A stretch of DNA of 64,000 nucleotides from a virus (IMGVR_UViG_3300012207_000003:163-64162); one strand, 5' to 3'; shown: positions 13,052-63,463, counted from the first letter of the stretch. A program made the numbers and translations. The notes: generated by a model not told the origin, from the sequence alone.

Positions 13052-13573
13052 TTATTCAGGAAATCTATAGAGAGTTCCCTGTGAAGTAACTCGTTCGAGT
13101 AAAACCTCATCGCGTACCATAAAAACAATGACTTTAGCGTTAACGTCTTCACAAACACAAACTTTTCCAAGATTGGCAAGTACCTCTTTCTCTGTAAACC
13201 AGAAGTAATCATCATCTACTTGGGGATTGGAAATCTCAAGCGTATTGGTTACAGAGTTAACAGATGCCTGGCGAAGATGTTTTTTGCTGTTGCACTTTAC
13301 GCAAGCTGGTACGCAGTTCTCAGCAGTTGTACCACCTCCATATCTAACAGATCGACAATGCTCTAATATTTGATAAGGCGCTTCCAGGCAATAAGCACAT
13401 TGCCAATTATACCTATCAAGAATCTCTAGCCACTGAGTCAATGTAAGAGTAGACGGATTGCCAAATTTTGATGTTCTCCTACAATTGCTCAAAACCCTAT
13501 GGCGCTCTCTTGCAATCTGTTCTCTTGTGAGAGTTGATGAATTTTTATTCATCAATATTTGTTCGTCCATCAA
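13052..13573 (-). CDS. HNH endonuclease
   Basis: LT..QW..IL..Y.W.CAYC...LEH...GG.T..ENCVPACVKCN. Confidence 0.8.
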   Translation of the reverse strand: MMDEQILMNKNSSTLTREQIARERHRVLSNCRRTSKFGNPSTLTLTQWLEILDRYNWQCAYCLEAPYQILEHCRSVRYGGGTTAENCVPACVKCNSKKHLRQASVNSVTNTLEISNPQVDDDYFWFTEKEVLANLGKVCVCEDVNAKVIVFMVRDEVLLERVTSQGTLYRFPE

Positions 13574-14729: not shown

Positions 14730-15500
14730 ATGGAACAACAACAATTCATCCTCACAACTGAACAACTCGCACAAGCATTTGGAGTAACTCCTAAAATTAT
14801 TAGCAATAACTTTAATCGTCACATAGAAGACTTCCAGGAGGATATCCATTATTTTGTGGCAGAGGGCGAAAATCTCAAACCCTTTGACATCCTCTCAGAG
14901 AGGACTTCAAACCTTGAAGAGGACATTTCATCCTCTTTAAACAATGACATCCTCTCAAAGAGGACTTCAAAAAGAGGGGGAGCTAGAAAAAGATATCTCT
15001 GGACATTAAAAGGTGCATTTGTTCATGCGTGGATTTTAAAATCCCCAAGCGCAAAAACATCCTATGAAAAATTAATGGGACTTGCTGAAAATCCTCAAGT
15101 TCACTCAGATGTACAACAAGAAGTCACAAGATTAAATGCGCTCGTTGCCAAACTTCAAGATACGGTAGACATGTACATCGGAGCACTCAATCATGCAGCA
15201 GATGAAAATCAAAAACTCAAAAATCAAAAGCGACAAACAGGACTTCCTCCAACCTCTGTTATGGACATTGAAATGATCTTAAATCGCTTGCGCCGACGCT
15301 TGAAAGAAGAGCGACTTGACACAAAAGCGATTATGCAAGATATCGCACAGTTAGATGCTAAGGTTTCAAAGACGCTAGAAATAGAAGAGTCAAGCATGGA
15401 AGACAGTATGAAACAAGCTGAATTCCGCTCAACCATACAAGAACAATTCGCCCAACTCACTCAACCAATCACACTACCCCTGCTCGAATCCCCTCGTTAA
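14730..15500 (+). CDS. ORF6N-domain antirepressor-like protein with coiled coil
   Basis: ILTTEQLAQAFGV....I..NFNRH...F.EDIHYF...YLWT.KG. Confidence 0.8.
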   Translation: MEQQQFILTTEQLAQAFGVTPKIISNNFNRHIEDFQEDIHYFVAEGENLKPFDILSERTSNLEEDISSSLNNDILSKRTSKRGGARKRYLWTLKGAFVHAWILKSPSAKTSYEKLMGLAENPQVHSDVQQEVTRLNALVAKLQDTVDMYIGALNHAADENQKLKNQKRQTGLPPTSVMDIEMILNRLRRRLKEERLDTKAIMQDIAQLDAKVSKTLEIEESSMEDSMKQAEFRSTIQEQFAQLTQPITLPLLESPR

Positions 15501-15725
15501 TCCCTCCAAAAATGATAATGCCTTGAATATGTAGCTTGCATATTCAAGGCTTCTCTCAGGATGCTCTATTGGTTGTGGATTGCGCTCTCTCCAATAGTCC
15601 TGCATTAGAACATTCAGCCCTACGGCAATCCCTTCTTGCTGGTACGTGGCTTACGCATTCTAATGGTAAGCTTTTCTTTCGATTGCTCTACTTGTTAGCT
15701 TGCCTGAATAGCATACCATAAGAAA

Positions 15726-16106
15726 TCATTGTGTGTCAAGATGTGTTTCCAGTTCCCGACTATGACCATCTATGAACTCTACAGCCGTGTGAATATCAAT
15801 CCTGACGATACCGCTCCTCGCCTCTGGTGACTGGTCACGAATGACAGTTAGCTTATCAATAGAGAGTTTTAGGTCGGCAATCATCACATCTTTTGCTGCC
15901 TCTATCACTCCGCTGGCAATAATTCGATCAACGACAATACGGGCTAATTCTTCTGTTGTAGCAGGCCCACCCCTAGCTGCTAACCGATCATCAAAAGGAA
16001 TCAAGACACTACGCGCTGTTTTTATTTCTCTGTTTGCAATCTGCAGATCTTGTTCCATAGCTTGTAGTTTCTGCTCAAGAACTGCCAGTTTTTCTTCAAT
16101 TGTCAC
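15726..16106 (-). CDS. hypothetical coiled-coil protein
   Basis: GGAAGGA SD before a GTG start. Confidence 0.5.
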   Translation of the reverse strand: MTIEEKLAVLEQKLQAMEQDLQIANREIKTARSVLIPFDDRLAARGGPATTEELARIVVDRIIASGVIEAAKDVMIADLKLSIDKLTVIRDQSPEARSGIVRIDIHTAVEFIDGHSRELETHLDTQ

Positions 16107-16169
16107 TACTAAATCCTTCCCTTGCTATACAAAAATTACACAAGAAAAACCCTGGCTAGTGGGGGAGGA

Positions 16170-16406
16170 CTAGCCAGGGTCAAAAGAGGGTGGAAGATCA
16201 CGTGGTGGAACTGGTTGGTATTTGCACTCAAAGCCTATTCTATCCAGGCTGGCAAACAAACTTCCAGCATTGATATCACTGAGCAGGGGCAATACAGTCT
16301 TTGGATTCAATGGACAAGCGCGGTTATGGCATGCTGCACATGGGAACTTGTACTGCCCTCTTTTTGTATGTTTTACGCGGATGAAATTGCGTTCTTCCAT
16401 CGGCAA
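16170..16406 (-). CDS. hypothetical protein
   Basis: AGGAGG SD; CxxC...C. Confidence 0.5.
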   Translation of the reverse strand: MPMEERNFIRVKHTKRGQYKFPCAACHNRACPLNPKTVLPLLSDINAGSLFASLDRIGFECKYQPVPPRDLPPSFDPG

Positions 16407-16438
16407 TACTTCCTCCTGTCACGTTGAGGGAGTGGTGT

Positions 16439-16780
16439 CTAACGGCGATAGGCGTTATCAGTGTTCCTGTACTCAGCTACATCATTCAAAGCGGTTTCTT
16501 TGAATGCTCTCAGTTGTGCTAATTCTTCTTCATACTGGCGAAGTTGTACTTTCAGCATTTTCATTTCTGCTATTGTGGCGGGGGCTTGATCGTCCTCGAA
16601 TTGTTGCGCTAGATTGATATACTTCTCAATTGATTCCTCATTCGAGAGGACATCAGCAACGATAACAGAGCAAAACACGCCCTGCCCGAAGTCCTGATTC
16701 TCGCAAATATCTTGGAGCTTATTCATAGCTTCTTCTGAAAACGCTCTTCTTGAAAGTGAAACAGTACCTACTTTTGTCAT
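16439..16780 (-). CDS. hypothetical protein
   Basis: AAGGA SD before MTKVGT. Confidence 0.55.
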   Translation of the reverse strand: MTKVGTVSLSRRAFSEEAMNKLQDICENQDFGQGVFCSVIVADVLSNEESIEKYINLAQQFEDDQAPATIAEMKMLKVQLRQYEEELAQLRAFKETALNDVAEYRNTDNAYRR

Positions 16781-16799
16781 GGTTAAAATTCCTTTCCTA

Positions 16800-17200
16800 C
16801 GTGTACAAAAACGATAAGAAACAAGAGAAGAAAAGAGCAAGGCATGATGCGAGTCACGCACACGCTTACTTCCAAAGATGCGCTGTTCCTTGCTCTCTCC
16901 CTCTTTTTTGTGCGAGTGAGTGAAAGCTCCTCTGACTGCCGATAAGGAGAATAGGAGTCGTTCATCTGAACGTATTCTGCACAGCCTGTAGAGCTACGCC
17001 AACACGGTACACTCACTCACACATTTGGCGGTAACTTTCCAAGCCTACATACGATAGGCTTGATTGAACTTTTCATGTGTTTCGTATAACTAACTATTCA
17101 ATTGTAAAGAATGGACAACGGCCTTACGGGTCATCCATTCCGCAACGGCCCTCCTTTCTTTTTGTCTCAGGAAGAGCGTACAAATTGATCTTCCTGGCTA
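16800..17200 (-). ncRNA. putative structured non-coding RNA or leader
   Basis: Long stems 16909-16922/17010-17023 and about 16823-16842/16888-16905; no convincing ORF. Confidence 0.45.
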
Positions 17201-17226
17201 CATCTATTCGACAAGCAAGTACGAAA

Positions 17227-17353
17227 TGGGGGCTGGCCAGATTCGAACTGGCATCTCTGGAATGAGGGAAAGATACCTCCAGGGAATCACTCTTCCTCTC
17301 AAACCCTCCAACCTGGGGGAGTTGTGTGTTTTGCCATTTAAACTACAGTCCCC
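17227..17353 (-). tRNA. tRNA-like RNA with an enlarged central insert and no canonical anticodon arm
   Basis: Acceptor GGGACTG/CAGCCCC, D arm TAGTTTAAATGGCAAAAC, T arm GCCAG-TTCGAAT-CTGGC. Confidence 0.65.
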
Positions 17354-17364
17354 GCGAAAATCTA

Positions 17365-17754
17365 TCACAAAAGCTGCATTGGCGGTAAATCGCCATCACC
17401 GTCGGCAAGCGTATACAGATGAAAACTTGATAAGGCCAGGGTATCAGGATCTGTTTCATGCGCTTTTGATTGTTGCCTTAGAACTCGTGTATTGCGGCGC
17501 ATAAGTGTACCTGACGGACGCAATGCCATAAGCTCCCGATTGAGCAAACTAATACGTGACCTGGCGCGTTTTAGCTCCTGCTCTGACTCCATAGTACGCA
17601 CTTCAAGCAAGCCTCTTTGCGCTTCCAGGCTCTGTACTTTCTGATAGTATTTATCATCTGCTTTTATCTGTGCGTTGCCTTGCTGATAGATGCCATATCC
17701 CAGTCCAGAACACGCCAGGATGAACAGGATAGCCATAAAAAGCGTAGATATCAT
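17365..17754 (-). CDS. membrane-anchored coiled-coil protein
   Basis: N-terminal hydrophobic helix followed by heptad-like segment. Confidence 0.55.
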   Translation of the reverse strand: MISTLFMAILFILACSGLGYGIYQQGNAQIKADDKYYQKVQSLEAQRGLLEVRTMESEQELKRARSRISLLNRELMALRPSGTLMRRNTRVLRQQSKAHETDPDTLALSSFHLYTLADGDGDLPPMQLL

Positions 17755-18251
17755 GGTTGAGGTTCCTTAATACTAATGCCCTCTTCACGCGCTCTCTGGC
17801 GCAATTGCGCTGGCTTAGAGTAGTATGTGTACATGTGAGGATTCAGGTCATGCAAATAATTGTCGTAGTCTTTGACGAGCTGCGCTAATACCATACAGCG
17901 TTCTCTTAAATCGCGCTCAGTGATGGAAGATGGTTTTTTATGATCTTCCTGATTTGGATTCATAAAGGTTTCTCTTTCTTTGGTCTGGCAACACGTACCA
18001 GTGGCTTGTTCGATTTTTGATAATAGATAGGTATTCCTCTGCATATCTCAGCACGTATGCTACACATAGTTTGATGACATTTACCGCAAATAGTACAGTG
18101 AGAAATACGGCATTTGGGATTGATACAAAGGGTCATTAAGCTTCCTATCCTTTCAAATGCACACATGGCGATGAGATAGGAACAAAGCCACATAAGCCAC
18201 AAAAATACTCATTTTCATGGTCACGTTTTCTAAGCCAATTCCAGAACTTTT

Positions 18252-19148
18252 TCATGAAATTTTCCTTTCCTGATCCTGAACGAACAACAGAGCGGGGGGT
18301 TGTATGGAGTATCCTGGTTTAATTTTGAGAGTAGAAATCTTCAACTTATCACCTTTTACATTTGCCTCAATTTCCCCTGCTTTCAATTGTTGTTTAAGCG
18401 TTGAAATTGCGTAGCCTGTGATGTGCGCAGCTTCCTCAAAAGTGACAAGATATTTTTGCGGACGAGTGACTTGTGAAGCCATATCAAGGCTTGAAAAACC
18501 GATTTCGTTTGTGAGTTCTTCCATCTCAAAACCAGGAGAGATTTCAGGAAGATTTTCCTCTGGTTTTTGCTTCAATTCTTGCCGCAGTTTTGGCTCCTGA
18601 AATGCTGCTTTTGCCACTTCTTTTATGTCAGAAATGGAGGTCAGAATTGAGTGCTTTTTGAGATCAGATTTGCGCACTTTTTCTGTTAATTTTGCCTCTG
18701 TTTCATCGTTGCGTTGCTTCAATTCCTCGGCTGATTCTGACTTAGAATTAAAGAGTTCCGCGACAATTGAATAGGCCAGATTTAAGAATGCAAAGGCACT
18801 TGCAAGTATCGGATTGAGCCAGTAGAAATCTGCGGCACGGTTCAAATCTTGACTTTGGAATTGTGTTGCGTATTCCCAATTGACAATCCAGGAAAAGGCT
18901 GTAAGTCCCAAGATAAAAAGCCAGATACCTGCTAATGCCCATCCTGACATGCCTTTTCTAAAAAACATAATGCCGATAGTCAGAATCAAAGCAGTGACAT
19001 CAATGCTGATAGCTAACGCATAAGAACCTGTCCAATCAGTATATGCAGGCTCAAAACTGTGGAAGAAATAGGCGATATGGCGCAAGGATGCATACAAAAA
19101 TGCGCCATATGCGAAAATGAATACAACTCGGATAATACTACGAAACAT
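18252..19148 (-). CDS. DUF2637/SpdA-like multi-TM protein with C-terminal HTH
   Basis: 4 TM segments with 'ASLRHI' and 'LAISID' motifs, coiled coil, then LVTFEEAAHITGYAISTLKQ. Confidence 0.6.
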   Translation of the reverse strand: MFRSIIRVVFIFAYGAFLYASLRHIAYFFHSFEPAYTDWTGSYALAISIDVTALILTIGIMFFRKGMSGWALAGIWLFILGLTAFSWIVNWEYATQFQSQDLNRAADFYWLNPILASAFAFLNLAYSIVAELFNSKSESAEELKQRNDETEAKLTEKVRKSDLKKHSILTSISDIKEVAKAAFQEPKLRQELKQKPEENLPEISPGFEMEELTNEIGFSSLDMASQVTRPQKYLVTFEEAAHITGYAISTLKQQLKAGEIEANVKGDKLKISTLKIKPGYSIQPPALLFVQDQERKIS

Positions 19149-19153
19149 ACCTA

Positions 19154-19321
19154 CTAGTCCCCTTTCCCTAAATATCTTTTCTTACGCTTATCATAATTAG
19201 AATCGACACCTGTATGCTCATCATGACGCATACGCAATAGGAGTGAGATACGGCCAAACCACCAACCGATAAAAGTGCCTACAATACCACCACAGATAAA
19301 AGCAAACTCAAATTCTGGCAT
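19154..19321 (-). CDS. small single-TM protein (55 aa, not in the ORF track)
   Basis: MPEFEFAFICGGIVGTFIGWWFGRISLLLR...; TAATG overlap with the ATPase stop. Confidence 0.55.
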   Translation of the reverse strand: MPEFEFAFICGGIVGTFIGWWFGRISLLLRMRHDEHTGVDSNYDKRKKRYLGKGD

Positions 19322-20784
19322 TATAAACCCTCCTCGTCTAAAACCTGTTTGATAATCTTGAATTGCTCTCCACTAAAGTGCATGGCATCTCGAATTTCAG
19401 TACGATTGAATCCTTGCTTGCGAAGTCTGATGATCTCATTTCTGATTTCTAGTGCTACTGGTATGCTACGCTCAACTGAATCAACGATAGAAATTTCTGG
19501 CATATCATACTGAAATGGCTCTATGTCTGGTTTCACGCCATTTCTGAAATCATCAGAAATGTTTCTGATTTCTTCCTGATTTCTGAAATTTCCAGAAATG
19601 TTTCTGGAAAACAACAGGCGTATATCATCGGTTGTTGTATCTGGAATTGCGACGATTTCAGGTTTGCGGTTTGAGGTTGCAAGCACTGCTTTTCCTGGCC
19701 CTGCGTTCTCTAAAATTGCCATCATGGACTTTGCTATATCGTTTTCAAGTCCAGCCATTCTTGCCTGTTGTGGTGAGGTACAAAACACATAGCGGCTTGC
19801 CATTGCATCACGAACGAGCGTACCACCCAAGATGGAAGCGGGTACTCCTTGCCCTGATATCAAGGCAAACATACCAACTTTCCGACCTTCTAAGACAATA
19901 CGGCGTATTGCTGGCAGTGCTTCCACAGCCATACTTGCAATAATTGGCATTTCATCGACTAATAAAAGAACAGGTTTAAAATGCGTTTGCCCCGCACGTC
20001 TGGCGCGTAACCTTTTTGTGAGATGTGCATCTAAACTGTGTGCATAGTCAATGATATCGCGTGGAGATTCGGCACATTCAAAGCTACTGCCAAGATCATC
20101 TAAGATAGATCCGTGAGGGTCAAATATAATCGGTTTGCCTCCAATTAATAGCACTTGACCGCATACATCACGTAGGAGCGTTGATTTGCCGGTACCAGGC
20201 CGTCCTACATCAAGTGTCGAAAGTAGATCAGTGATATCCCCCCATATAGGGCCTTGTGTGCCCTGCGCTAAGAAAAGGTGTCCTGGCCTGATTTGAGAGA
20301 CAACAGAGCTAAATGGCGGGGCTATAGGCAAGGCGGGGGGTAGTAACTCTTGCTCGGCATGCCCCCAGTTTAGCTCTTTAATAGTTGTATTGGAGGCATT
20401 AGCCGCTAATGCAGCTTGTGGATGGATGATATTCATTTCGCTTCCATCAGCATATTTGACTTGCACAGAACAGCCTTGAAGCAACGCAAGACTAACGGTA
20501 TCTCTTCTGTGCGTGCTGTCTTTGTGCTGATGCCTCACGCTGATGTGATGCAAGCCATGCAGATGTACGGCTTTGCCTGCTTTCCAGGTGATAGGTAGCC
20601 CGACACATATACCTATCATCGCTGCGAGTGGCATACCCCAGCTATACCAGTTCAAGAGAATAAGAGAAAACAAACAAAAGAGAATCAGAAAAACCATAGC
20701 GCCTAAACCCAGCCATGTTTCAATTGGTAGTGATGTTCTGTATTCTCTCTTCTCAGATACAACTCTTTGTTCGTTCATACTCAC
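19321..20784 (-). CDS. membrane-anchored FtsK/HerA/TraB-family ATPase
   Basis: 2 N-terminal TM helices, Walker A GRPGTGKS, IIFDPH, Walker B LLLVDE, EGRKVG...SGQ, C-terminal HTH. Confidence 0.8.
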   Translation of the reverse strand: MSMNEQRVVSEKREYRTSLPIETWLGLGAMVFLILFCLFSLILLNWYSWGMPLAAMIGICVGLPITWKAGKAVHLHGLHHISVRHQHKDSTHRRDTVSLALLQGCSVQVKYADGSEMNIIHPQAALAANASNTTIKELNWGHAEQELLPPALPIAPPFSSVVSQIRPGHLFLAQGTQGPIWGDITDLLSTLDVGRPGTGKSTLLRDVCGQVLLIGGKPIIFDPHGSILDDLGSSFECAESPRDIIDYAHSLDAHLTKRLRARRAGQTHFKPVLLLVDEMPIIASMAVEALPAIRRIVLEGRKVGMFALISGQGVPASILGGTLVRDAMASRYVFCTSPQQARMAGLENDIAKSMMAILENAGPGKAVLATSNRKPEIVAIPDTTTDDIRLLFSRNISGNFRNQEEIRNISDDFRNGVKPDIEPFQYDMPEISIVDSVERSIPVALEIRNEIIRLRKQGFNRTEIRDAMHFSGEQFKIIKQVLDEEGL

Positions 20785-20846
20785 ACATCCCCGTTTCCAG
20801 TTCGTTCTACTAGTGACGCTCTGTTAATCAATCCTACGGAGTGTTT

Positions 20847-20880
20847 AAACTGGCTTGCCATGTACATGGCAAGCCAGTTT
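20847..20880. repeat. 34-bp perfect palindrome
   Basis: AAACTGGCTTGCCATGT|ACATGGCAAGCCAGTTT. Confidence 0.95.
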
Positions 20881-20895
20881 GTTACTACGTTTTAC

Positions 20896-21147
20896 TTATC
20901 CTCTCCCGCAAAGTTTATCCCATAATGATGGCTCTTTTTCGACATTCGGGCCACTATTCCAATAATCACGGAATCCATCATAAAACGCTCTCGGATTGTC
21001 GCTTAAATCTTCAGACATGTGTTCAACTTGCATCGGCGAAACTTCAGCATCTACCTCTTCCAAAGTCTCTGCCCAGTCAGCACCATTATAGTAGTCGTCT
21101 GCTGAGTTAGCGTTAATAAAGTTTAATGCTGCTCGTAAAATTCCCAT
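20896..21147 (-). CDS. hypothetical acidic protein
   Basis: AAGGGA SD. Confidence 0.5.
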   Translation of the reverse strand: MGILRAALNFINANSADDYYNGADWAETLEEVDAEVSPMQVEHMSEDLSDNPRAFYDGFRDYWNSGPNVEKEPSLWDKLCGRG

Positions 21148-21258
21148 AGTCTTTGTCCCTTTCTGTTACACTTCTTTCAGATGAACATATCATCTGTGTG
21201 CTTGTTGCTTTGTCCTTTTGCAACAAGCACCATTTCTAAAACTACTACTAAAACTGCG

Positions 21259-21617
21259 CTACAACGACGCTAGAGCCTCTTCCAACCCTAAAACCCATAG
21301 TGCATCAGGTTCTTGCTTTGGCTGTGCTACAGGCTTCTTAAGCGCATAGCTAATGGCGATAATAAGCAACGTCACCGAGCCAAATAGGAAAAGTGTCGAG
21401 ATAATTGAAAGGAACATACTATCCCTCCTCCTCATGATTTTTCCTGAACTGGAACAGGGACAGTAGCAGGCTTGTTCAAACGCCACTGTGCTAATGTGTG
21501 CTTGCTAATAACTACAATGGCAGCTCCGCCAGCTATCAAGAACAAATTGGTAAAAGAAATCACACAATACTCGACTAACATACACACCCTCTTTTCAAAA
21601 AAATACAGACTACACAA
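21259..21617 (-). CDS. two tandem small single-TM proteins
   Basis: MLVEYCVISFTNLFLIAGGAAIVVI... and MFLSIISTLFLFGSVTLLIIAI..., each with a strong SD. Confidence 0.5.
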
Positions 21618-21622
21618 ACATG

Positions 21623-21886
21623 CTATGGTAATTTCTCGTCAAGAATTTTGACGACTTCAACTTTGGAAGCTTCGATGATAAACGCTCCATCGATATCAAA
21701 GCTTGTCCACCATGTATCACGTATAACAGGCCTGTCAGCTCTTCCCCACTGAACCATCTCAATCTCTTCACCAAGATGAAATGTATATTCCCGATACGGG
21801 TCAACTGACCTCTTCATCGTCATCTCCTTGACACGAACGAGAGCGCGTCTATGCCAATCATGTGATGCTATCATGTTCTCATTCAT
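21623..21886 (-). CDS. hypothetical protein
   Basis: AAGGA SD; WWTSFDIDGAFII. Confidence 0.5.
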   Translation of the reverse strand: MNENMIASHDWHRRALVRVKEMTMKRSVDPYREYTFHLGEEIEMVQWGRADRPVIRDTWWTSFDIDGAFIIEASKVEVVKILDEKLP

Positions 21887-21911
21887 CCTTTCCGAAATGT
21901 AGAACTACACA

Positions 21912-22139
21912 TCAGAGAATTTTCAATCCATCCAGATCACCTACGTAAATATCTCGCTTCATGGCTTTGCTGAGTGCTTCTACAATCTTGAGTGCCGTTC
22001 GGCTAGAGCATTCATCCTGAAATATGGCTTTACTGGCCGTTCGCCAGGTGATTCTTGCTTCCCTGGCAAGCTTGGAAACATTCCAACCGAGATATTGACA
22101 ATAATCCTGGAGCGTCACGAGATTATCTTCCTGATACAT
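21912..22139 (-). CDS. Cro/XRE-like HTH regulator
   Basis: LQDYCQYLGWNVSKLAREARITWRTASKAI; first gene of the leftward operon. Confidence 0.7.
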   Translation of the reverse strand: MYQEDNLVTLQDYCQYLGWNVSKLAREARITWRTASKAIFQDECSSRTALKIVEALSKAMKRDIYVGDLDGLKIL

Positions 22140-22242
22140 AATACCTCTTATGATACGTATTTTACCTATGAATACACAAAGAATACCTAACAAATACAGA
22201 AAAAGCAAGCAAACAGGCGTAAAAGAGGCAATTCAGGAAGAT

Positions 22243-22392
22243 AAAAACAAACGTAAACGAAGTGTAGTAAACGTAGATAAAACGTTGAAAACAAAAATCT
22301 ACACTTCAATGAGCTTGAAAGGTTCAGCTTCTAAGCACGAATGATAGGAAGTGTCGAAATGTAGACGCGTTTTGAACAAAGTTTTTTGAAAA
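22243..22392 (+). repeat. left arm of long imperfect inverted repeat (iteron-rich)
   Basis: 22294-22392 matches the reverse complement of 24060-24158 at about 80/99 nt, ungapped, counted by hand. Confidence 0.9.
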
Positions 22393-22544
22393 CCAGGATG
22401 GTTTGAGATACTTTTTGAAAGTTGTACACATTCTCAGATAGTTTTCAACATTTCTGTGAATAAGTCCTATCTGGCGATGTGGAGATGAAAAAAAACGAAT
22501 AATTACGAATTTTTGAAAATTGCGAAAATTCATCTTGAAAATGC

Positions 22545-22573
22545 TTGACAATCAAGTTTGAATATGTTAACAT
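22545..22573 (+). promoter_or_regulatory. sigma70-type promoter
   Basis: TTGACA-N17-TAACAT with upstream A-tracts. Confidence 0.7.
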
Positions 22574-22618
22574 TCAAGTGTACCAAGAAAGTACAAAAGA
22601 AACAAAGGAGAAAACAAG

Positions 22619-22969
22619 ATGTATAGTCAGAATTTCAAACCAGTTGCCTACCGTCGCAATGAGATCGAGGACATGAAGTCCTTCACCGAGATGGAGCAAG
22701 CACAATTCGAGCAAGAGCGCAACGAGCAGGACGCTCATAACAACGCCAATACGCTCGTCTGGACACTCAGCAATGGGCAAGAAGTTCGCGTTCGTCCAGT
22801 CTATGACGATCATTTTGATTGCATCATGTACGCCGTCAAAATCGGCAATGCCGAGTATAGGAATTATGATCTTGAGTTAGTTCGCAATGTTCCTGGCGTC
22901 GTTGCAAAAGTCGGGCCAGTTGGCCTGACAGCAGAGCGCAAAAGCGCATTAGAGAAAATGGAGACATAA
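22619..22969 (+). CDS. hypothetical protein
   Basis: AAGGAG SD; first gene after the promoter. Confidence 0.65.
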   Translation: MYSQNFKPVAYRRNEIEDMKSFTEMEQAQFEQERNEQDAHNNANTLVWTLSNGQEVRVRPVYDDHFDCIMYAVKIGNAEYRNYDLELVRNVPGVVAKVGPVGLTAERKSALEKMET

Positions 22970-23316
22970 TGGAAAAGCAAGATGTTTTCGTTATATCCTC
23001 TCAAAAGGATATGGAAGCATTCAAGAAGTGGGGAGGCAAGCGTCAGGGCGCAGGTCGCCCGCATGAACACCAGGAATATCTCCTAGTTGAAGTCGTCGAT
23101 TTCTACGGCGACAAGGACACGCTCATAGCAGGCATGGTTGGCAGTCGTGGCGTAGAAGCAAGAGCGCAAAGCATCGCTACCCATCATGTCAATGAGCAAG
23201 CGCTATCAGTCAAAATTGTAAAGCGTCTGTGTTGCTCCCATGGCGAGAGCGCACTAGTCGAAATCATAAAGCATGAGCAAGCAGCTATTGATATTCGCGA
23301 AGAATTGAAAAAGTAA
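22969..23316 (+). CDS. hypothetical protein with WGGKRQGAGRP DNA-binding-type motif
   Basis: TAATG coupling; motif visible. Confidence 0.6.
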   Translation: MEKQDVFVISSQKDMEAFKKWGGKRQGAGRPHEHQEYLLVEVVDFYGDKDTLIAGMVGSRGVEARAQSIATHHVNEQALSVKIVKRLCCSHGESALVEIIKHEQAAIDIREELKK

Positions 23317-23362
23317 CAGCCTCGCACAACAAGGTAGCCCGAAAGGGCGGAAAGGCACAAAA

Positions 23363-23608
23363 ATGGCAAATGTTAATATCCAGGGGGACGACCTGGATAA
23401 TGTTTCGACAAAAATTGAAATCTCCTCGCTTGAGGAACTAGGCAATCTTCTGGCAGCAATGCCAGAGGGTACAACGGCGAATGTGCTTGGCGGTGATTTG
23501 GACGCGGGCAATTTCGAGGTTGCCCATCTCGAAACACCAATTGGCAGTAGCATTGGCATTTTGTATTCTGGCCCTGTCGCGGAGGGCTATCAAAGCCCAT
23601 TCGAGTAA
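23363..23608 (+). CDS. hypothetical acidic protein
   Basis: ORF followed by a terminator. Confidence 0.55.
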   Translation: MANVNIQGDDLDNVSTKIEISSLEELGNLLAAMPEGTTANVLGGDLDAGNFEVAHLETPIGSSIGILYSGPVAEGYQSPFE

Positions 23609-23636
23609 GCCCCTCGCTACAATCCAGCCAGCGCAT

Positions 23637-23672
23637 GACCTCTAAGAGAGCAATGTCTTAGAGGTTCTTTTT
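23637..23672 (+). terminator. intrinsic terminator
   Basis: ACCTCTAAGA-loop-TCTTAGAGGT followed by a T run. Confidence 0.7.
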
Positions 23673-24059
23673 TATTTCTAGGCAGGGGTACAGTAGGGAG
23701 GCTATTTCATATAGACATAAAACTATTGTTCAGTTCATGTGTATACAGTATTTATCTCTATATTATATGTTGAATGAAAAAATAAACTATGGGGGTATCT
23801 TAGTATCTAGTACTATATACTATAACACAGTATAGCAATAGTACAAAAGTACTAGTATCATTTTAACCCCTGCTTAGTGAGAAGAGAACTATTAAAAATA
23901 AACTGAACAATAACACCTATCTGGAAATCTGATACTAGCCCCTGCTTTGTGGATACTCATATTTGTTACCAGGATTGAAATTCTGATGTGCTTCAGGTTC
24001 CAGGTGAGTGATAGATCATCTCAGTTAGATTTTTTAATCCTGGCATCACAAAGAGGGCA

Positions 24060-24208
24060 TTTTCAAAAAACTTTGCTAGAATCACGTCTACATTTCGACA
24101 CTTCATACTCTTTGAGCTTAGAAGCTCTACTATTCAAGCATAAGGAAGTGTAGATTTTACTTTCGACACTTCGTCAACACTTCTACACTTCCTTTACACT
24201 TGCTTTTC
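24060..24208 (-). repeat. right arm of long imperfect inverted repeat (iteron-rich)
   Basis: Tandem ACACTT units: TCGACACTTC, TCAACACTTC, CTACACTTC, TTACACTTG. Confidence 0.9.
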
Positions 24209-24435: not shown

Positions 24436-24960
24436 ATGCAAGAAAATGTATCCCTTTCCAGAAATCAAGAGCGTTTCTTGCAATTGCTGTTACTTGGCAA
24501 GAACATAACCGCCGCTTCAAAAGAAGTCGGCATTAATCCAGTCACAGCGCATCGTTGGCTCAATACTCCTGTATTCCAGGAAGAGCGCAAACGCCGTGAA
24601 GCTGAGTTATCCAAGCTTGAACAGGAAGAGATAACTCGTATTCTCACTAGTGGCTATGCTCTCATGCATCGACGTGTCGAAGCTCTTGATAAACTCTCAA
24701 AGAAGCTAGAATCCTATTTAGAAGACGAGTCAAAAATCTGGCTTGCAGATGTGAAAGCAGTAGGGCTTGAACGTGTAGATCTTGTTCAATTCAATGCTGA
24801 CTTGTTCAAAGAATACCGCGCTACCTTTGCCGATCTTGCCAGCGAACTAGGCCAGCGTGTGAAGAAGACAGAGACAGAGCACAGTGGCGCAATTGATCTG
24901 ACAGGCGCAAAAGATAGATTACTCGGAAAACTCGCAACACTTCCAGATGATGAATCCTGA
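24436..24960 (+). CDS. terS: terminase small subunit (HTH)
   Basis: N-terminal HTH, helical body, EHSG motif; overlaps terL. Confidence 0.75.
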   Translation: MQENVSLSRNQERFLQLLLLGKNITAASKEVGINPVTAHRWLNTPVFQEERKRREAELSKLEQEEITRILTSGYALMHRRVEALDKLSKKLESYLEDESKIWLADVKAVGLERVDLVQFNADLFKEYRATFADLASELGQRVKKTETEHSGAIDLTGAKDRLLGKLATLPDDES

Positions 24961-49941: not shown

Positions 49942-52900
49942 ATGCCAACAATTCATGATTGGACATTTGTAGCTGACGGGCCGTTAGGTACAACCCTCGG
50001 CTTTAATAATTATTCCAGTATCCAACCCCTCGCCTCGCAAGCCTGGACGGATATAGCTGCGCTTGGTATCTCTCGTGTACGCTTGAATATCGTGACTGCC
50101 TCTTTCATGCCCACTCCTGGCTCTTTTAACTGGGGAGGGCTTGACGCGCTTGTGCAAGCCGCCAATCAGCATGGCATCAGGGTTACTTTGATAGCACGTG
50201 GGTACAAGGGTGACAGCCCTACCAACAATAACCCCGCGCCTTGTGGTTCAAATACCAACCCTCACTATTTTTCATCGGTCAATACCTATAAAACCTTAGC
50301 AATAGCCTTATGTCAACGCTATAGTGGCGATGGAAACTCCAAGAACGCCATAGCCAATGATGGTTCTGGCAAGAAACTTCAAGTTGATTGTATCGAAATT
50401 GGCAATGAAGAGTTTGATGTCTATGCAGGCACGAATGCCGATTGTCGCAACCCCCTGAGATATGTGTACTACTTGAAGCAAGTCGTCCCTGCTATGAGAG
50501 CATCAGTAGCGAGTGGTGGCGGCGGATGGAATCCATCAGGCAACTTTCAGGCCAGGATTGGCTGTTGGGGTTTATGGTGGCAGCAACAAGCGCATGTCAA
50601 GTACGTGGTCAATACGTTCTACAATCCAAATTATGATCTTTCAAATCCCTTATACAGCACATTCAACCCAACTGGCAACGGGTCAAGCGTCATTGGCTAC
50701 AACAGTGGCTTAGGCGTGCAGATGCTCGACTACCTGAACTTCCATAACTACTCTTACCCAGCGCAAAATGTCACACTGGCACAGTACGGAGTTGACCAGG
50801 AATTAATAGATATCAAGGCAGTTCAGGCTTTCTACAATGATACACTCACTCCTATCTGGATGACAGAATTTGGAGCGGACGGGCCATGTGCGGCAACTGC
50901 TGGCAGTGGGCAAACAGCGCAAGAGGCGAGCTTAGAAGCAACGCAATCAACGTACTACGCTGCAAATGCCGATGGCTCAGGCATTGGAGCCTTAGCCACG
51001 GCTATGAACCACGGAGCGCAACACATCGATATCTTCACGATCAATTATAATGCTCCAAATGCGACAAGTAACTATACAGGGCAAGTCAAAGCCATTGCCT
51101 GTGCTGTCTCAGGCGGTGGATTTAAGCGGTTCAAAGCATTTACGGCGATTCAGAACTTCTTGACATCGAACGGGGCAACGTGGGCGGCGAAACCAGTTCC
51201 TAATGGGTTTGGGCCTACGTCAGCTCCTCCCTCTCCTCCCTCTTCAATCACGTTTTATTTGGGCAAGGTACTTGATACCTCACCTGCTCTGCTTGCAACA
51301 TTTAATGATGTGAGTACGGCATCGGGCGGTTCTCAGGTAGGGCAAGATACGCCGATTGATGGATATACAGGCTATGGGGAATGCTACCCAAATCAAGCAC
51401 TTTCCCCCTGGCCTGCATACGCTTCTGAACCTCTTGTTCCATTTTCCAATAAAGGCAATATCTGGCCCGTTGCACTTGGTAATCAAGCGATCTTAAATGG
51501 CAATTGGACTCCTACTTTAAGAGCAACAGTGATTAATGGTACAGGCAATATCACAGCCGATTTGTTAGTAAGAGTGTGGGTATGGAACAGTGTTACCAAA
51601 GTTGCTACCAAGTATGGAGTGTTGCGCTTAAACGGAAATACCATCACGTCAACTTCAACAAACTTTGTATTTAGCGCGGCGGGTTTAGGTGTGATTGCAG
51701 GCGGGCCAGATGATTATATCGTCTTTGATACGCTGGCAAACATCACGGCCAATTCCAATCCAGCAGGCACAAAGCTACGTCTCAACTTCTCTTCTTCAAG
51801 CACACAAGGCAATGCCAACGGCCAGATAACTGCTCCTGGCATGGCTCCATCGCGTCTCATTCCTATGGCATCGGCACTACAGGGCACATTCACGCGTACT
51901 ATCTCTATGGCCTCTGCCCTCTCTTTCCAACGTGTTATCCCGATGGCCAGCGCAACATCAGGAAGTCCACATAGAGTTATCCCGATGACTTCTAGCGTGT
52001 GTGGAGCGGCTCTTGCCAATCCTTACGTGCAAACTATCGCAAGCACTGACTTTATGAGTACATCAGGGCCGCATTTGATCTATAGAGGGCAACAAATCAA
52101 GCTCTATGGAACGACTATCTACCTAGCTACTCAGGGAGGGGCTAATACCTGGTTACATACCGATGCCAGGGCGGTATTAGATGATCTTTTCACACAAGCC
52201 TATAACAACGGCATCGGCATGATTAGGATAACAGACTACTGGGACGGTTCTAACATCACAGCATTTGACTGGCCTCAACTCTGGGCCAATATCGACTATT
52301 GCGTGACCAGAGCGCAACAACTCGGAATGTTCATTCAAATGGACATTAGCGCCTATAAGAACGTGCTGATAGCTAATGCAATTGATTGGACGGTAGCTGC
52401 CAATTGGCATGATTGGATAACGTTTGTAGGCTATCACTTTAGGAATACCGCTACTTCCATCTGTTGGTACTCTATATTAGGAGAGCCATTTGTACCTGCA
52501 AATCAAGCAGATTGTGATGCACTCGCTTTGTTCTATGGGACGATGTGTAACACGCTCTATGCCGCTGATACGTCACATCTCATTCAGGCAGGGGGATTGA
52601 CACATATTAACGATGTAGTGGGAGGTCTCACAGATCCGTCATGGTGGTATCAAGTATTTACCTTGCCTCATAATGATTTGCCTGCTTACAAAACCTACTC
52701 AACTCAGGATTGTGTCTATCTCGCAACTATGCGGTCTATCATGACTACGTACAACATTAATAAGCCCCTGGTAAACAACGAATTTGGCAACCAGCAATCA
52801 CAAGGGGATCAAGTTTTCCCTGCTTTTTCTAATACTTTGAATGGAACAATCACAGCAGGCGCAACGATAACTGCGCTTGCCTTGCATACAGCCATTTCAG

Positions 52901-55900
52901 GACAAACGATCATAGCAGGAACGATTATAGCCGTGTCTGGCACTGAGAACTATGTAGTGCTCACTGATACTTCAAGCGGTACTTCACTGCCTGTCAAGAG
53001 CGTGACTGCTCAACAGAACCATGCTAATAACGATGCTATTTCAGCATTAGGGTTTGGAGATGAAGATCATAGTTTAGCTGATACTGCCTATAATTATTTC
53101 AGTGTGGTACTAGGCTTAACAAACACTGTTAAGCACTGGAATAAAACCGCTCGAACCATCACGATAGATTCGTGTATTGGAGGCGATCAAGCAGGGACGG
53201 TTAGCTATGTGGTATGGAATTTGGGTTACTTAGTTGGGCCAGATCACTATGACCTTTCAGCTAATACAGGCCTTCCCCAGAGTTGGGCTTTATATGGCCG
53301 CCACGCGCGTTTAGACGGTTACGTGCCTGTCATGGCTGGCACATCCTTTCAAATCACGGTTGGAGGAGTGCCTGTTGTCTTTAATGAGGATACTTTTCAT
53401 ATCACGTACAAAGAAAATGAAGCATGGCGATGCCAGTTTACCATTCTTGATTATGATGGAAACCTTGTATTTCCTTATCGCTCTCAGGTCAGAGTTACTG
53501 ACTACAACACGCAAGGCGTCTTATTTACTGGTTTCCTGATTGAAGATAACTTTGATAAATCCAATGCACGTCAAAACAAATTGATAGAGCATAAGATTGA
53601 TTGTATAGGCAACGAATCCAAGCCTATGAAACGGACTTCCAACCGCTTGTATACAGTGCCATTTCCGGCGGCGCAAGGTGTCATGAACATGCTTGACGAT
53701 GTACTCGTTGCTGAGGGTGTCACTGCCAAGTATGCCTATAGCGAAGTGACCACCTTTCCTGATTGGATTGCAGGCACACTTTCAGGTACAACCGCTTCTA
53801 CTAATCTTCCTAATGGCGATTTAGAACTGACAGCGGCGGGAAGTGTTGTTACTGTGTCAGAAGCGACAACAAGTGACTTTGCAGCAGGCACACTTACGAA
53901 TGTTCAGTCTGCTTCCAACGCTTTAACGCTCAAATCACATACTGGCATATCGATGACTGCTACCTGTACAGGTGGAGTTGGAGATGCCCACTTATATTGG
54001 ACGATCTATCCTGGCAACATCGTGCAAGCGAATGACTGGGTACTCTCTTACTACATGTGGATAGACCCCAGTAGCCCTAAGATCATGGCGGGGATAGATG
54101 TTGTGTATACCGATGGTTCCAGGTTGAATACCTTAAACTCAGGGCTAGGGGAATTCGATCAGCATGGCATGGGTTCTAATCCTGCCAATGACCTCTCAGG
54201 TTGGGCAGATGGACGTTGGGAGTATCGTCAGATAGGCTTGCACGCCTATACTGGGAAGACGATTAACTATATCGCAATGGGGATTGAGGGAGATCAAGCG
54301 GGGAAGTATGGTGTCTACTTCCATGATGTAAAAGTGACCTATACGAGCACAACTGAGATAGATGTGTCAGGCACGTTCACAGGCGGGGGCATTGTTTCTA
54401 ACGCTGGCTACAATACCATTGTGGTAGCATCTCCAACCGTGTATGAGCAAACAGGCAATCGTGTCAGTTCATCGCATAGCTTGACGAGTGTTGGCATTTA
54501 TCAGAACAGTCTTGCAAGTTGGATTGTGAATACTCCTTCAGATACCACGTTCACACTTGAAACGAGCTTTGATGGAGGGGCAACATGGCAAGCTGCTACC
54601 AATAAAGCCAAACTAGGGATAATCACACCTGGCACGTATTTAAATGGCATCTCGCTGTTACTCAAGGAAAGCATGGCTATCACAGGGAATACCCCCCTGC
54701 TCAGTCCATCGCTCAGTCAAGTGGCGGTGTCAATTGTGCCTGGCTATACGAGCACACAAACCGATGTGAAATATACACGGACATCGGATTCAGATTTCAA
54801 TGCTGGCACACTCACGAACTTAGTTGCAGCTTCTAATTCAGGATTAGGCTTAACTGGTTTCTGGCGTGACTGGAAAGATAGTGATACCAACTCGCTTTCT
54901 AGCGATCAAACCGTCTATGGAACTGCTTCACCGACGCAAACACTGAACGCCAATCAGTTGAAAGTACAGACAAACACCGGAGCAGATGCACGTGTCAAGA
55001 TGGTTGGAGCAGGTGCAACATGGCAAAATTTCACGCTATCTGTAAATGTTCAGATACCAACCGCCGGAACTGGCAACATTGGCGTAGTGTACAGAACAAC
55101 AGGCTGGCAAAATAATGACAATAGCTTTGCCTATGCGGTAGAAGTCTCTTCAACGGCTGTTACTTTAATCAGAGGTACTAATTCAGGAAGTGGGGGAGGC
55201 ACTCGCACACAAATAGCCACACAAGCTCTTACTTTAACAGTTTCAGGCTTTTATACCTTGAAAGTAGTTGTCAACAGCGTTGATGCATCGCACACAAACC
55301 ACACGATTTATATAGATGATGTGCCATATCTTACTTCAACCGACAATACCTATAACGCGGCGGGTAGTATTGGTATGCGCCTCTACAATGGTTCAGGTGT
55401 GCAGATCACGGGCTATTATGGCTCTCTCGCAATTCTGAATGCTTTAACAGGACAATATGTTTCTGAAAATCTCTCACTCAATGCAGTAGGGACGGTTGGA
55501 ACTTCAAGGATATTCTGGGAAGATGTAGCCCCTGGCAGTTCTTCCAGGCTCTTTGAAACATCGATCAATGGCGGTAGTACCTGGCAAACAGCAAGCTATG
55601 GTCAAGAGATAGTAGGACTACCCGCAGGAACCAATGTCACAGGCATCAATCTGAAAGTACGTATCACAGAAACAGCAGGAAGCGAGCAAGATCAACCTAC
55701 CGTCTATGGGTATACCGCGTGGGTGACTTCGCGGTTTTCTTCATCTGGTACGTATATCTCCCCCGCTCTTTCCCTGGCTACCGTCGGGCAAGTGGGGAAT
55801 ACGCTTGTGAGTTGGGCGGGACTGCAACCGTCAGGAACAACAATCACGGTTGATAGCACGATCAATAATGGTTCAAGTTGGCAAACGAATGTAGTTCCAG

Positions 55901-62156: not shown

Positions 62157-63026
62157 TTATTTCTCCAGTACTTTCCTGAGTTTCCTCATAGCTACTTCTT
62201 CAATTTGGCGCACACGTTCACGCGTGACACCAAGTTCCCTGGCTATCTCTTGTAACACGTGCGCACGGCCATCTGCGCCTATGCCAAATCTCAACTTGAT
62301 AACGTGTTGCTCACGTTCTGTTAAGCAAGCAAGAGCTTTTTTGACACGTTCGGATATTTCATCTTGTTCAACATCTATCTCGGCGGTTGCTTTTTCGTCT
62401 GCAATCAGATCACCTAGGCACACATCTTCATGGTCAGCTACAGGCACGTCCAATGAAAGCATATAATACATGTGTTGCCAGATCAAGACTATCTCTCCTG
62501 GTTTTTCCCCTGCTATCTCAGCTAATTCTTCTAATCCAGGTTCATAGCCATATTGCATAGTGAAGTTGGTAAAATGCCTCTTCAGTCTATTCCGTTTCTC
62601 AACGCTATAGCAAGGGATGTGAATCATATATTCTAATCCTGGTAACGCTCTGGTGATCGCTTGCCGAATCCAGCCTGTAGCATAGGTTGAGAACTTGTAT
62701 CCGAGTCGCCAATTAAAGGTTTGGGTAGCTCGCATAAGCCCTATATTCCCCTCCTGTATCAAGTCGTGCAGGGAAATATCACCTCTTTGATAATATCTGG
62801 CTACTGAAATCACAAGGCGGAGATTGGATTGTATCAGAGTTGTTCTAGCTGACTCGTTCCCCTGCTCGATTCTCTGCATCAAATCAATCTCTTCCTGTTT
62901 ACTGAGCAGGGGGTATTGACGTACCTGTTCAATATACCAGGCCATATCATCAGTTAATTCAAAGCTTCTCTGTGCTGCAAAGATGCCTTGACGCTGCATA
63001 GGACGTGTTTGTGGAACTGCTACCAT
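62157..63026 (-). CDS. RpoD/SigA-like RNA polymerase sigma factor (no region 1.1)
   Basis: PLLS..EE..L, NLRLVISVA, DLIQEGNIGL, GYKFSTYATGWIRQAI, SLD, GVTRERVRQIE. Confidence 0.95.
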   Translation of the reverse strand: MVAVPQTRPMQRQGIFAAQRSFELTDDMAWYIEQVRQYPLLSKQEEIDLMQRIEQGNESARTTLIQSNLRLVISVARYYQRGDISLHDLIQEGNIGLMRATQTFNWRLGYKFSTYATGWIRQAITRALPGLEYMIHIPCYSVEKRNRLKRHFTNFTMQYGYEPGLEELAEIAGEKPGEIVLIWQHMYYMLSLDVPVADHEDVCLGDLIADEKATAEIDVEQDEISERVKKALACLTEREQHVIKLRFGIGADGRAHVLQEIARELGVTRERVRQIEEVAMRKLRKVLEK

Positions 63027-63463
63027 CTCTGTTACTCCTCCTTTTATTTCCACTTTTCGAGTACTGCGGTAGAATAGTTCTATAGTACCTTGAAAACAGA
63101 ATAGTGCTTGTCGGTTCCAGGGTAATTCGGTTCCCTGGGTAAAAACACTACCGTGTCAACCAATGTACATCTCTCTTTCAATTTGCCACTTGCGAGAACC
63201 ATGCAAGCGATGAATACCAGACTGAGAAGCTACCGCAGGGCTTGCGGGAAGCAAATGCCTGTGGAGGCGGTGTAAGACCAAATGAACAACTTGGTGTCTG
63301 TTTGGCAACCTCCAACGAAGCAGGAAAGCCTACTTGTGAGAGTAGGAGTCCCCTGGATTTATCCAAGGGAGATGTCAATCCTCCCAGTTTGTTGTCCGAT
63401 CCTGAGCAAATACAATAACAAAGCCAATGATGCTGTAAATGAAGACTCCAAGTGCTATCAAGT

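Follow-up and report, generated by a model that had tools for sequence, protein, structure and literature searches.

What use would a tailed phage with a terminase of its own have for a second DNA motor, one that is anchored in the membrane and encoded together with further membrane proteins? The question is raised by a leftward operon (17365-22208, minus strand) in IMGVR_UViG_3300012207_000003, a 64,162-bp virus record from IMG/VR of which bases 163-64162, referred to here as the window (64,000 nucleotides), were analyzed. The operon belongs to the early/regulatory region, diverges from the rightward genes and is built around an FtsK-like ATPase and a membrane partner with four transmembrane (TM) segments, accompanied by small proteins. 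An earlier note on this DNA had read it as a module resembling TraB and Spd of Streptomyces plasmids. The open reading frames (ORFs) it named are present, all on the minus strand, and the architecture it described stands, whereas a relation to TraB or Spd at the sequence level is not detectable by tblastn against PLSDB plasmids and GenBank phages. We tentatively propose, by analogy with TraB and its clt site, that the operon specifies a membrane-embedded machine that would pump double-stranded DNA (dsDNA) and act on the phage's own genome, and we put the chances of this reading at somewhat below even. The proposal builds on direct observations of fold class, topology, conservation of a gene pair and an array of short words at the DNA level that changes with the type of helix-turn-helix (HTH) domain encoded next to it; new here are the words within the ATPase gene and the way they differ between HTH types.

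The ATPase, as judged from its AlphaFold2 (AF2) model and from hydropathy, begins with two TM helices and a long helix, continues with a small β domain and a RecA-type core, and ends, beyond a disordered linker, in a three-helix HTH domain at the C-terminus. In the model (mean predicted local distance difference test, pLDDT, 81.6) the long N-terminal helix runs from residue 21 to 102 and the linker from 398 to 439, while the C-terminal domain (residues 445-485) has a pLDDT of about 90 and no modeled wing. By hydropathy, residues 25-43 form a clear TM segment and a second one stays slightly under threshold, both being clear in three (L002, L003 and L004) of the five related viral loci found through the ATPase (L002-L006). 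The FtsK/HerA-family ATPase with two TM segments and a C-terminal HTH of the earlier note is thereby upheld in superfamily and three-helix domain, its second TM segment being clear in relatives and under threshold in the window. Walker A (GxxGxGK) and Walker B (DE) motifs are invariant. No Pfam or PHROG model reaches threshold with the ATPase itself, and no match was obtained with PF01580, with the FtsK_4TM, alpha and gamma domains (PF13491, PF17854, PF09397) or with any Pfam HTH; HTH_38, HTH_24, MarR or Crp are each found in one or two distant family members. The family comprises 70 close proteins and 852, 341 and 88 representatives at E<=1e-3, 1e-10 and 1e-30, respectively, and 47 distant members carry Pfam matches to DUF87 (16), nSTAND_NTPase5 (12), AAA_22 (10), AAA_10 (7), FtsK_SpoIIIE (6) and TrwB (4). 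A family profile built from 42 members finds TcpA (6o1w) as its best match in the PDB at E 1.2e-4, with HerA, TrwB (E 0.028) and EccC weaker, and this family-level evidence places the ATPase, by sequence, in the FtsK/HerA superfamily. A fold search with the AF2 model ranks the FtsK motor first (7e-11), followed by TcpA (1e-10), EccC (3e-10) and HerA complexes (1e-8 to 1e-6), with VirB4 absent among the matches listed; a fold search against viral models returns proteins labeled 'DNA translocase FtsK', and all rows of an Atlas structure search are FtsK-family clusters. As modeled, then, FtsK and TcpA are closer to the ATPase than HerA is. A grouping with HerA- or VirB4-type ATPases, raised as an alternative in the earlier note, is disfavored by this ranking, a partial match to the defense gene mad8 (see below) speaking on the other side. 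By tblastn the ATPase has no match in 50,697 GenBank phages or in 72,556 PLSDB plasmids (E<=1e-3 for PLSDB), and neither has the partner in these two sets. The ATPase family is real and undescribed, and its member in the window matches no Pfam model. A P-loop pattern scan of cellular genomes gave, among the matches listed, one of 69 aa in a Bacteroidales metagenome-assembled genome, which is uninformative.

The linker-coding part of the ATPase gene contains an array of eight copies of the word (Y)CAGAAAY (Table 1). In a scan for clustered 8-mers this was the sole cluster of the whole window, at 19437-19606. The core word CAGAAAY occurs at 28 sites in the window, 8 of which fall within the 170 nt of the array, and the longer YCAGAAAY at 15 sites, again with 8 in the array; among 1,274 segments of 300 nt the array ranks first for recurrence of any 7-mer, with 6 copies against a mean of 2.2. 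Comparison was made across the five close family members with DNA, counting words in the tail of the gene and in the locus (for the window the 9-kb region 15001-24000). CAGAAAY was found 8 times in the tail and 12 times in the locus of the window (0.4 expected in the tail) and 9 and 16 times in L002 (0.29 expected); in L003 the word is CAGGAAC, with 5 and 9 copies (0.16 expected), and in L015 and L016 it is GGAAAC, with 7 copies in each tail (0.71 and 0.4 expected) and 7 and 15 in the respective loci. The top 7-mer reaches a count of 4-8 in the tail, versus at most 3 in any other stretch of equal length of the same gene, in all five genes.

The word follows the type of C-terminal HTH: each tail is rich in the word of its own type (8 and 9 copies of CAGAAAY, 5 of CAGGAAC, 7 and 7 of GGAAAC), with cross-counts of 0-1. 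At the protein level, an alignment of 20 sequences shows RN[IV][SF] in 10/10 type-1 and 0/7 type-3 proteins, and ET[AVD] in 7/7 of the latter. Part of the window's array is read as the peptide repeat RNISGNFRN / RNISDDFRN, and the same word recurs in a different frame as CCA GAA ATT (peptide PEI) and, reversed, as ATT TCT G (peptide IS-G/D). Across the five loci, words stand in three frames in every case and in both orientations in four. Words in several frames and orientations encode unrelated peptides, and the constraint therefore is on the DNA. In line with this, synonymous-site identity between the window and L002 is 0.71-0.94 over residues 347-430 and 0.25-0.55 over most of the gene. A metagenome scan with the single ATPase protein gave no match, and one with alignment A4 yielded four loci, two of which have usable tails. 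By analogy with the Streptomyces plasmids, the array looks like a docking site of the clt type, and we treat it as a putative one.

The partner, encoded 3' of the ATPase, has AF2-modeled helices at residues 2-30, 40-62, 69-96 and 111-134, and hydropathy likewise predicts four TM segments; these are followed by a 44-residue long helix (140-183), a disordered stretch and an HTH (234-270). HTH_17 is matched by 25 of the 43 members of the partner family. The four TM segments, long helix and HTH ascribed to this protein in the earlier note are all seen, but the DUF2637 label does not hold: PF10935 gives 14.0 and 14.5 bits and does not reach its gathering cut-off of 22.8. Sub-threshold DUF2637 matches are equally seen in 5 of 14 control genomes, and at E<=0.05 the domain is found in 3 of the 43 family members (best 5.3e-5). 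Fold matches of the partner are weak, the DUF2637 protein of Gordonia phage Jace being found at E 8e-3 and phiC31 gp25, possibly the SpdB2-like protein of that phage, at E 1e-2. The Atlas contains Actinomycetota clusters that combine DUF2637 with HTH_17, which at a score of 0.79 (below 0.9) serve as a lead only. Among the papers that a full-text search listed for DUF2637, none concerned phages. Complex prediction for ATPase and partner gave scores of 0.00 and 0.00 and is uninformative either way. With no BLAST link and with scores under the curated cut-offs, membership of these proteins in TraB, DUF2637 or SpdB2 is unsupported by sequence.

Searching with the partner gave six viral loci, five of them new records (L012 duplicates that of L004), and an ATPase-family gene is adjacent on the same strand in 6/6; a lack of conservation of the pair, which the earlier note had named as a refutation of its proposal, is thus not seen. 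Among the five ATPase-derived loci, L004 has a true partner homologue directly 3' of the ATPase, while in L002, L003 and L005 the slot is filled by a nonhomologous protein, again with four TM segments and with an HTH at its C-terminus; in L006, two 4-TM proteins encoded upstream of the ATPase take the place of the partner. In this comparison of loci, related phages keep the ATPase and its partner as a pair, whichever small genes lie around them.

The system that comes closest in design is TraB/clt/Spd of pSVH1, pIJ101, pJV1 and pWTY27 and of the actinomycete integrative and conjugative elements. As described in two articles (PMC4447253, PMC3583192), TraB/TraA proteins are anchored by an N-terminal TM region, which in TraA consists of two helices; their motor is hexameric and FtsK-like, and at the C-terminus they have a winged HTH whose helix 3 reads repeated 8-bp motifs. 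The parallel between TraB and FtsK is stated there. The same articles report that clt of Streptomyces plasmids is made up of an array of repeats, direct and inverted, of 5-9 bp each, that in pWTY27 clt overlaps the last 16 bp of traA, that SpdB2 is a 4-TM oligomer which binds dsDNA and interacts with TraB, and that spd genes are too diverse in sequence for matching between plasmids. The phage module shares the TM anchor, has by its model an FtsK-like motor and a C-terminal domain of HTH type, carries a putative short-repeat site at the 3' part of its tra-like gene, and encodes a 4-TM partner and small membrane proteins in the same operon. It differs in that its ATPase has 487 aa versus 688-772 aa for the plasmid proteins, that its array lies wholly within coding sequence, and that its carrier is a tailed phage whose host is probably not an actinobacterium. 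As an analogy, the module would match the TraB/clt/Spd design point for point, without sequence relation or a TraR-type repressor, and SpdB2 appears to be the better literature analogue of the 4-TM partner than SpdA, the name given in the earlier note.

Two other FtsK-type systems invite comparison. TcpA of Clostridium perfringens pCW3 (PDB 6o1w-6o1z) belongs to a Gram-positive DNA-transfer system, in which this ATPase of FtsK type, anchored in the membrane, acts with a relaxase and a multiprotein Tcp apparatus. It is the best PDB sequence match and stands second in the fold search, with a template-modeling score of 0.55-0.58 on the target, but is only 14-15% identical to the phage ATPase; no relaxase or gene resembling a type IV secretion system was found among the window ORFs scanned. 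FtsK and SpoIIIE read 8-bp words (KOPS and SRS, respectively) through a winged-helix gamma domain. Their motor fold is the top match of the phage ATPase, which also pairs a C-terminal domain of a DNA-reading type with short oriented words, binding being predicted. The phage protein, however, has two TM helices, not four, and gives no Pfam match to alpha or gamma domains, and its words are clustered at one locus and not spread with polarity over the replicon. SpdB2-like/DUF2637 or FtsK/SpoIIIE-like genes have already been annotated in actinophages (phiC31, VWB, Gordonia phage Jace and Streptomyces phages Jaresh and AndoPrime), from which the window's proteins differ in that their fold and hidden Markov model (HMM) links lie under the usual thresholds and tblastn gives no match. 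The idea of virion-free spread is itself already in print for actinophages (Thoma et al.).

We propose that the module would work as follows. The ATPase, anchored by its two TM helices, would presumably assemble into an FtsK-type ring, and its C-terminal HTH would dock on the (Y)CAGAAAY array within its own gene. The motor would then pump phage DNA through a membrane or septum, with the 4-TM/HTH partner, predicted to contact the ATPase, and the small TM proteins forming the membrane side, as SpdB2 and other Spd proteins do for TraB. By the same analogy, the most likely role of such a pump would be virion-free movement of phage DNA from one compartment or cell to another, in a soil host that is septate and probably mycelial.

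Several points weigh against this proposal. The absence of tblastn homology to plasmid or GenBank-phage proteins means that the resemblance to TraB/Spd is architectural and not shown descent, and no match to GntR or any other regulator family was found at E<=0.1 among the 10 operon proteins scanned, so that a GntR-type TraR/Kor regulator is missing from the likeness. The more distant loci L004 and L005 show no word excess (3 copies versus up to 4 elsewhere) and L006 is marginal (4 versus 3). Arrays sit in low-complexity, linker-coding DNA that is prone to repeats, the L003 array being in part the coding sequence of a GTGTGT peptide. Linker and HTH are adjacent and can be inherited or swapped jointly without any binding relation, and the synonymous conservation comes from one sequence pair and could reflect a recent recombination patch. 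The best curated HMM match of the ATPase is to PADLOC mad8 (E 5e-9, 34 bits), over residues 193-315 only, from the P-loop to Walker B. Finally, the host is not firmly placed.

As to that host, named cellular relatives of the partner are confined to three entries, all from Ktedonobacteria (Dictyobacter arantiisoli, strain brp13 with an 8.9-Mb contig, and a Ktedonobacteraceae metagenome-assembled genome), and two Thermomicrobiaceae (Chloroflexota) are among the few named relatives of a phage-encoded sigma factor (Table 1). The same DNA is present in 10 soil-metagenome runs of 7 studies, 4 of them possibly the record's source. The nearest relatives of TerL come from cyanophages, from phages of proteobacteria and from actinophages, and the portal has no database match. 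The Ktedonobacteria and Thermomicrobiaceae entries and the soil habitat are suggestive, though no proof, of a mycelial soil member of the Chloroflexota (Ktedonobacteria), and the filamentous host of the earlier note has only such hints behind it; no paper on Ktedonobacteria phages or conjugation was found among the matches listed. The full claim, that tailed phages of Ktedonobacteria carry a self-contained, sequence-unrelated pump of TraB/clt/Spd type and spread their genome through it as naked dsDNA without virions, we consider improbable as it stands.

The alternative that survives best would retain the pump and change its purpose. Here the ATPase would act in an FtsK/SpoIIIE-like manner at closing or sporulation septa and use the array to clear or deliver an extrachromosomal phage genome, in a carrier or plasmid-prophage state and with no cell-to-cell transfer. 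Fold, HTH and array speak for this as much as for transfer between cells. Moreover, no tyrosine or serine recombinase (integrase, resolvase) and no ParB is encoded in the whole 64,162-bp record, extending to its full length the earlier note's remark that the window has no integrase, so a temperate phage would need other means of inheritance; the ORF6N anti-repressor-type gene (Table 1) suggests, from its sequence, a temperate lifestyle. The literature sees ftsK-like genes of Streptomyces phages as possible manipulators of development. Against this, L003, a relative, encodes an integrase next to the module, which therefore does not go only with phages that lack one, and nothing shows the phage to be lysogenic or kept as a plasmid. 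We regard maintenance as an unlikely purpose, and the plasmid-like prophage of the earlier note finds no positive evidence, given the absence of partition genes and the integrase of L003.

The array could also be a regulatory site, either an internal operator or promoter for the 55-aa protein and partner genes or a site for the HTH of the partner, the ATPase having an unrelated role such as division or envelope remodeling. It does lie some 120-290 nt upstream of the next gene start, in an operon that encodes two HTH proteins there, and a hairpin with a T-run is predicted on the opposite strand at 19539-19561. Promoter-like sites are, however, not in excess (14 versus 12.8 in shuffled sequences), and the start codon of the 55-aa gene overlaps the ATPase stop codon, which argues for cotranscription. 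In addition, the word follows the HTH type of the ATPase even where the partner is nonhomologous, the window and L002 having the same word with different partners. All in all, a regulatory site is a quite unlikely explanation.

Defense or superinfection exclusion would have the membrane ATPase and its partners block or expel the incoming DNA of competing phages. The mad8 match is the main argument, together with the HerA-type complexes among the fold matches (SIR2/HerA at 1e-8, DndH at 5e-6) and the early, accessory-looking character of the operon with its strain-variable small genes. MADS is an eight-gene operon in which MAD7 and MAD8 form an ATPase-nuclease module, whereas here the match is confined to the region given above, none of nine neighboring proteins matches PADLOC and the other seven MADS genes are absent. 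Nor is there an adjacent nuclease, Sir2 or methylase partner; FtsK and TcpA outrank HerA in the fold search, and an in-gene word array that tracks the HTH would not be expected of a defense ATPase. Such a function thus strikes us as decidedly improbable. A lysis or envelope cassette, with the small TM proteins and the 129-aa protein as holin- and spanin-type components and the ATPase as an unrelated neighbor, can draw on several small single-TM proteins, on an Rz-like spanin PHROG match of the 129-aa protein and on the lack of an endolysin elsewhere among the ORFs scanned, but with that match at E 0.013, below the usual thresholds, with the operon placed in the early/regulatory part of the genome and running away from the rightward genes, and with the ATPase-partner pair kept as a unit whatever the small genes, it is very improbable.

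Table 1. Features of the operon and other genes of the window discussed in the text
Feature	Position	Strand	Remarks
ORF6N anti-repressor-type gene	14730-15500		
129-aa protein	17365-17754	(-)	N-terminal TM helix and coiled coil; last operon gene
Small soluble protein	17751-18044	(-)	C-terminal 57 aa 56% identical in L002
Cys-rich small protein, possibly zinc ribbon	17960-18202	(-)	C-terminal 48 aa kept in L002
4-TM membrane protein, coiled-coil helix and C-terminal HTH_17-type domain	18252-19148	(-)	298 aa; conserved ATPase partner
55-aa hydrophobic Gly-rich protein	19154-19321	(-)	Start codon overlaps ATPase stop codon; kept in L002
FtsK/TcpA-like P-loop ATPase, membrane-anchored	19321-20784	(-)	487 aa; relatives align from ATG at 20778
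Array of eight (Y)CAGAAAY words	19438-19606	unstranded	Two palindromic pairs and single copies; in linker-coding part of ATPase gene, just before HTH-coding end
34-bp perfect palindrome	20847-20880	unstranded	About 65 nt upstream of ATPase start; coincides with boundary of strain-variable segment
83-aa acidic protein	20896-21147	(-)	No TM segment; missing from variant strains
75-aa single-TM protein	21259-21486	(-)	Hydropathy; 46% identity in L002
61-aa single-TM protein	21432-21617	(-)	Hydropathy
87-aa protein	21623-21886	(-)	No TM segment; missing or swapped in soil variant strains
First operon gene	21912-22208	(-)	98 aa from TTG start; internal Met at 22139 likelier start; HTH-like stretch by eye
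2,530-aa single ORF	49942-57534	(+)	3' of tape-measure gene; presumed giant tail fiber/host-recognition protein
Sigma-70 family factor	62157-63053	(-)	Regions 1.2, 2, 3 and 4 present

Around the ATPase and its partner the operon is variable. In soil contigs from four runs the ATPase-partner core is identical and variation is confined to the flanking small genes: contigs jump from 20857/20884 to 21258/21259 in three of the four runs, with loss of the 83-aa gene, and contigs of three runs jump over 21599-21898, the region of the 87-aa gene. Both genes are missing from variant strains and are therefore dispensable. Homologues of four small genes are retained in L002 (Table 1). As to membrane proteins, 'at least four' small single-TM proteins had been counted in the earlier note; three of them (129, 75 and 61 aa) pass the hydropathy threshold and are clear, and the fourth (55 aa), hydrophobic yet under threshold, is borderline. 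The first gene of the operon had been called Cro-like, a name that finds no support in the libraries: its protein has no Pfam match, its best PHROG (E 0.004) is one of unknown function, and its hydrophobic N-terminus exists only if the upstream TTG start is used. The 34-bp palindrome between the 83-aa and ATPase genes may be an operator or a recombination joint and looks like a mosaic boundary; it is not conserved in L002 and therefore is not counted as part of the mechanism. L003 (6294-6313) and L016 (4878-4897) have a 20-bp palindrome in common (TCATCAGTTATAAC / GTTATAACGGATGA) just upstream of the ATPase start, which is distinct from that of the window and from its sequence looks like a conserved operator. 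A cluster of TTCAAAA/TTGAAAA words at 22370-22535 lies within the divergent intergenic region that separates the operon head (22208) from the rightward gene at 22619 and is likely, on its sequence, to be the operator and promoter region of a genetic switch.

The remainder of the genome is that of a tailed phage. The record has direct terminal repeats and an estimated completeness of 75% (CheckV). Virion genes encoded in the window are those for TerL, portal, head protease, adaptor, neck protein and tape-measure protein, the match for a major head protein being weak. The siphophage with its own terminase of the earlier note is supported as to the terminase; no tail sheath family was matched among the window ORFs, several large structural ORFs of which remain unnamed, and the phage may accordingly be a siphophage or a myophage. 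A replication block comprises two SF2 helicases, an N6/N4 methylase, RusA, a DUF3987 primase-helicase and a Toprim primase, and the replication region also holds two HNH endonuclease genes (2456-2953 and 13052-13573), probably of the homing type. The sigma-70 factor has four database relatives with 87-90% identity, its nearest cellular ones, a taxonomically mixed set, being only about 47% identical; for a 64-kb phage to encode a full sigma factor of the housekeeping type is unusual. The second-ranked 7-mer recurrence of the window is ACACTTC, present five times within 90 nt (24098-24185) about 250 nt upstream of a small-terminase-like gene (24436-24960), and comparable GTGTC-type clusters lie upstream of the early regions of L002 and L003. 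By its sequence and position, the ACACTTC cluster may serve as a pac site, in terminase binding or in control of the late operon.

Apart from any biology, the analysis defines an unnamed protein family with 852 representatives at E<=1e-3. What the locus holds is best read as a TraB/clt-like design realized in a new protein family, in phages and probably outside the Actinobacteria. If our proposal is true, dsDNA transfer of the TraB type, akin to conjugation, would extend beyond the Actinobacteria and serve as a route of viral transmission. The phage would then be a virus with two such routes, one by particles and the other by a pump that drives its genome directly across septa or cell junctions, and this would change the view of phage spread, plaque containment and lysogeny in multicellular bacteria.

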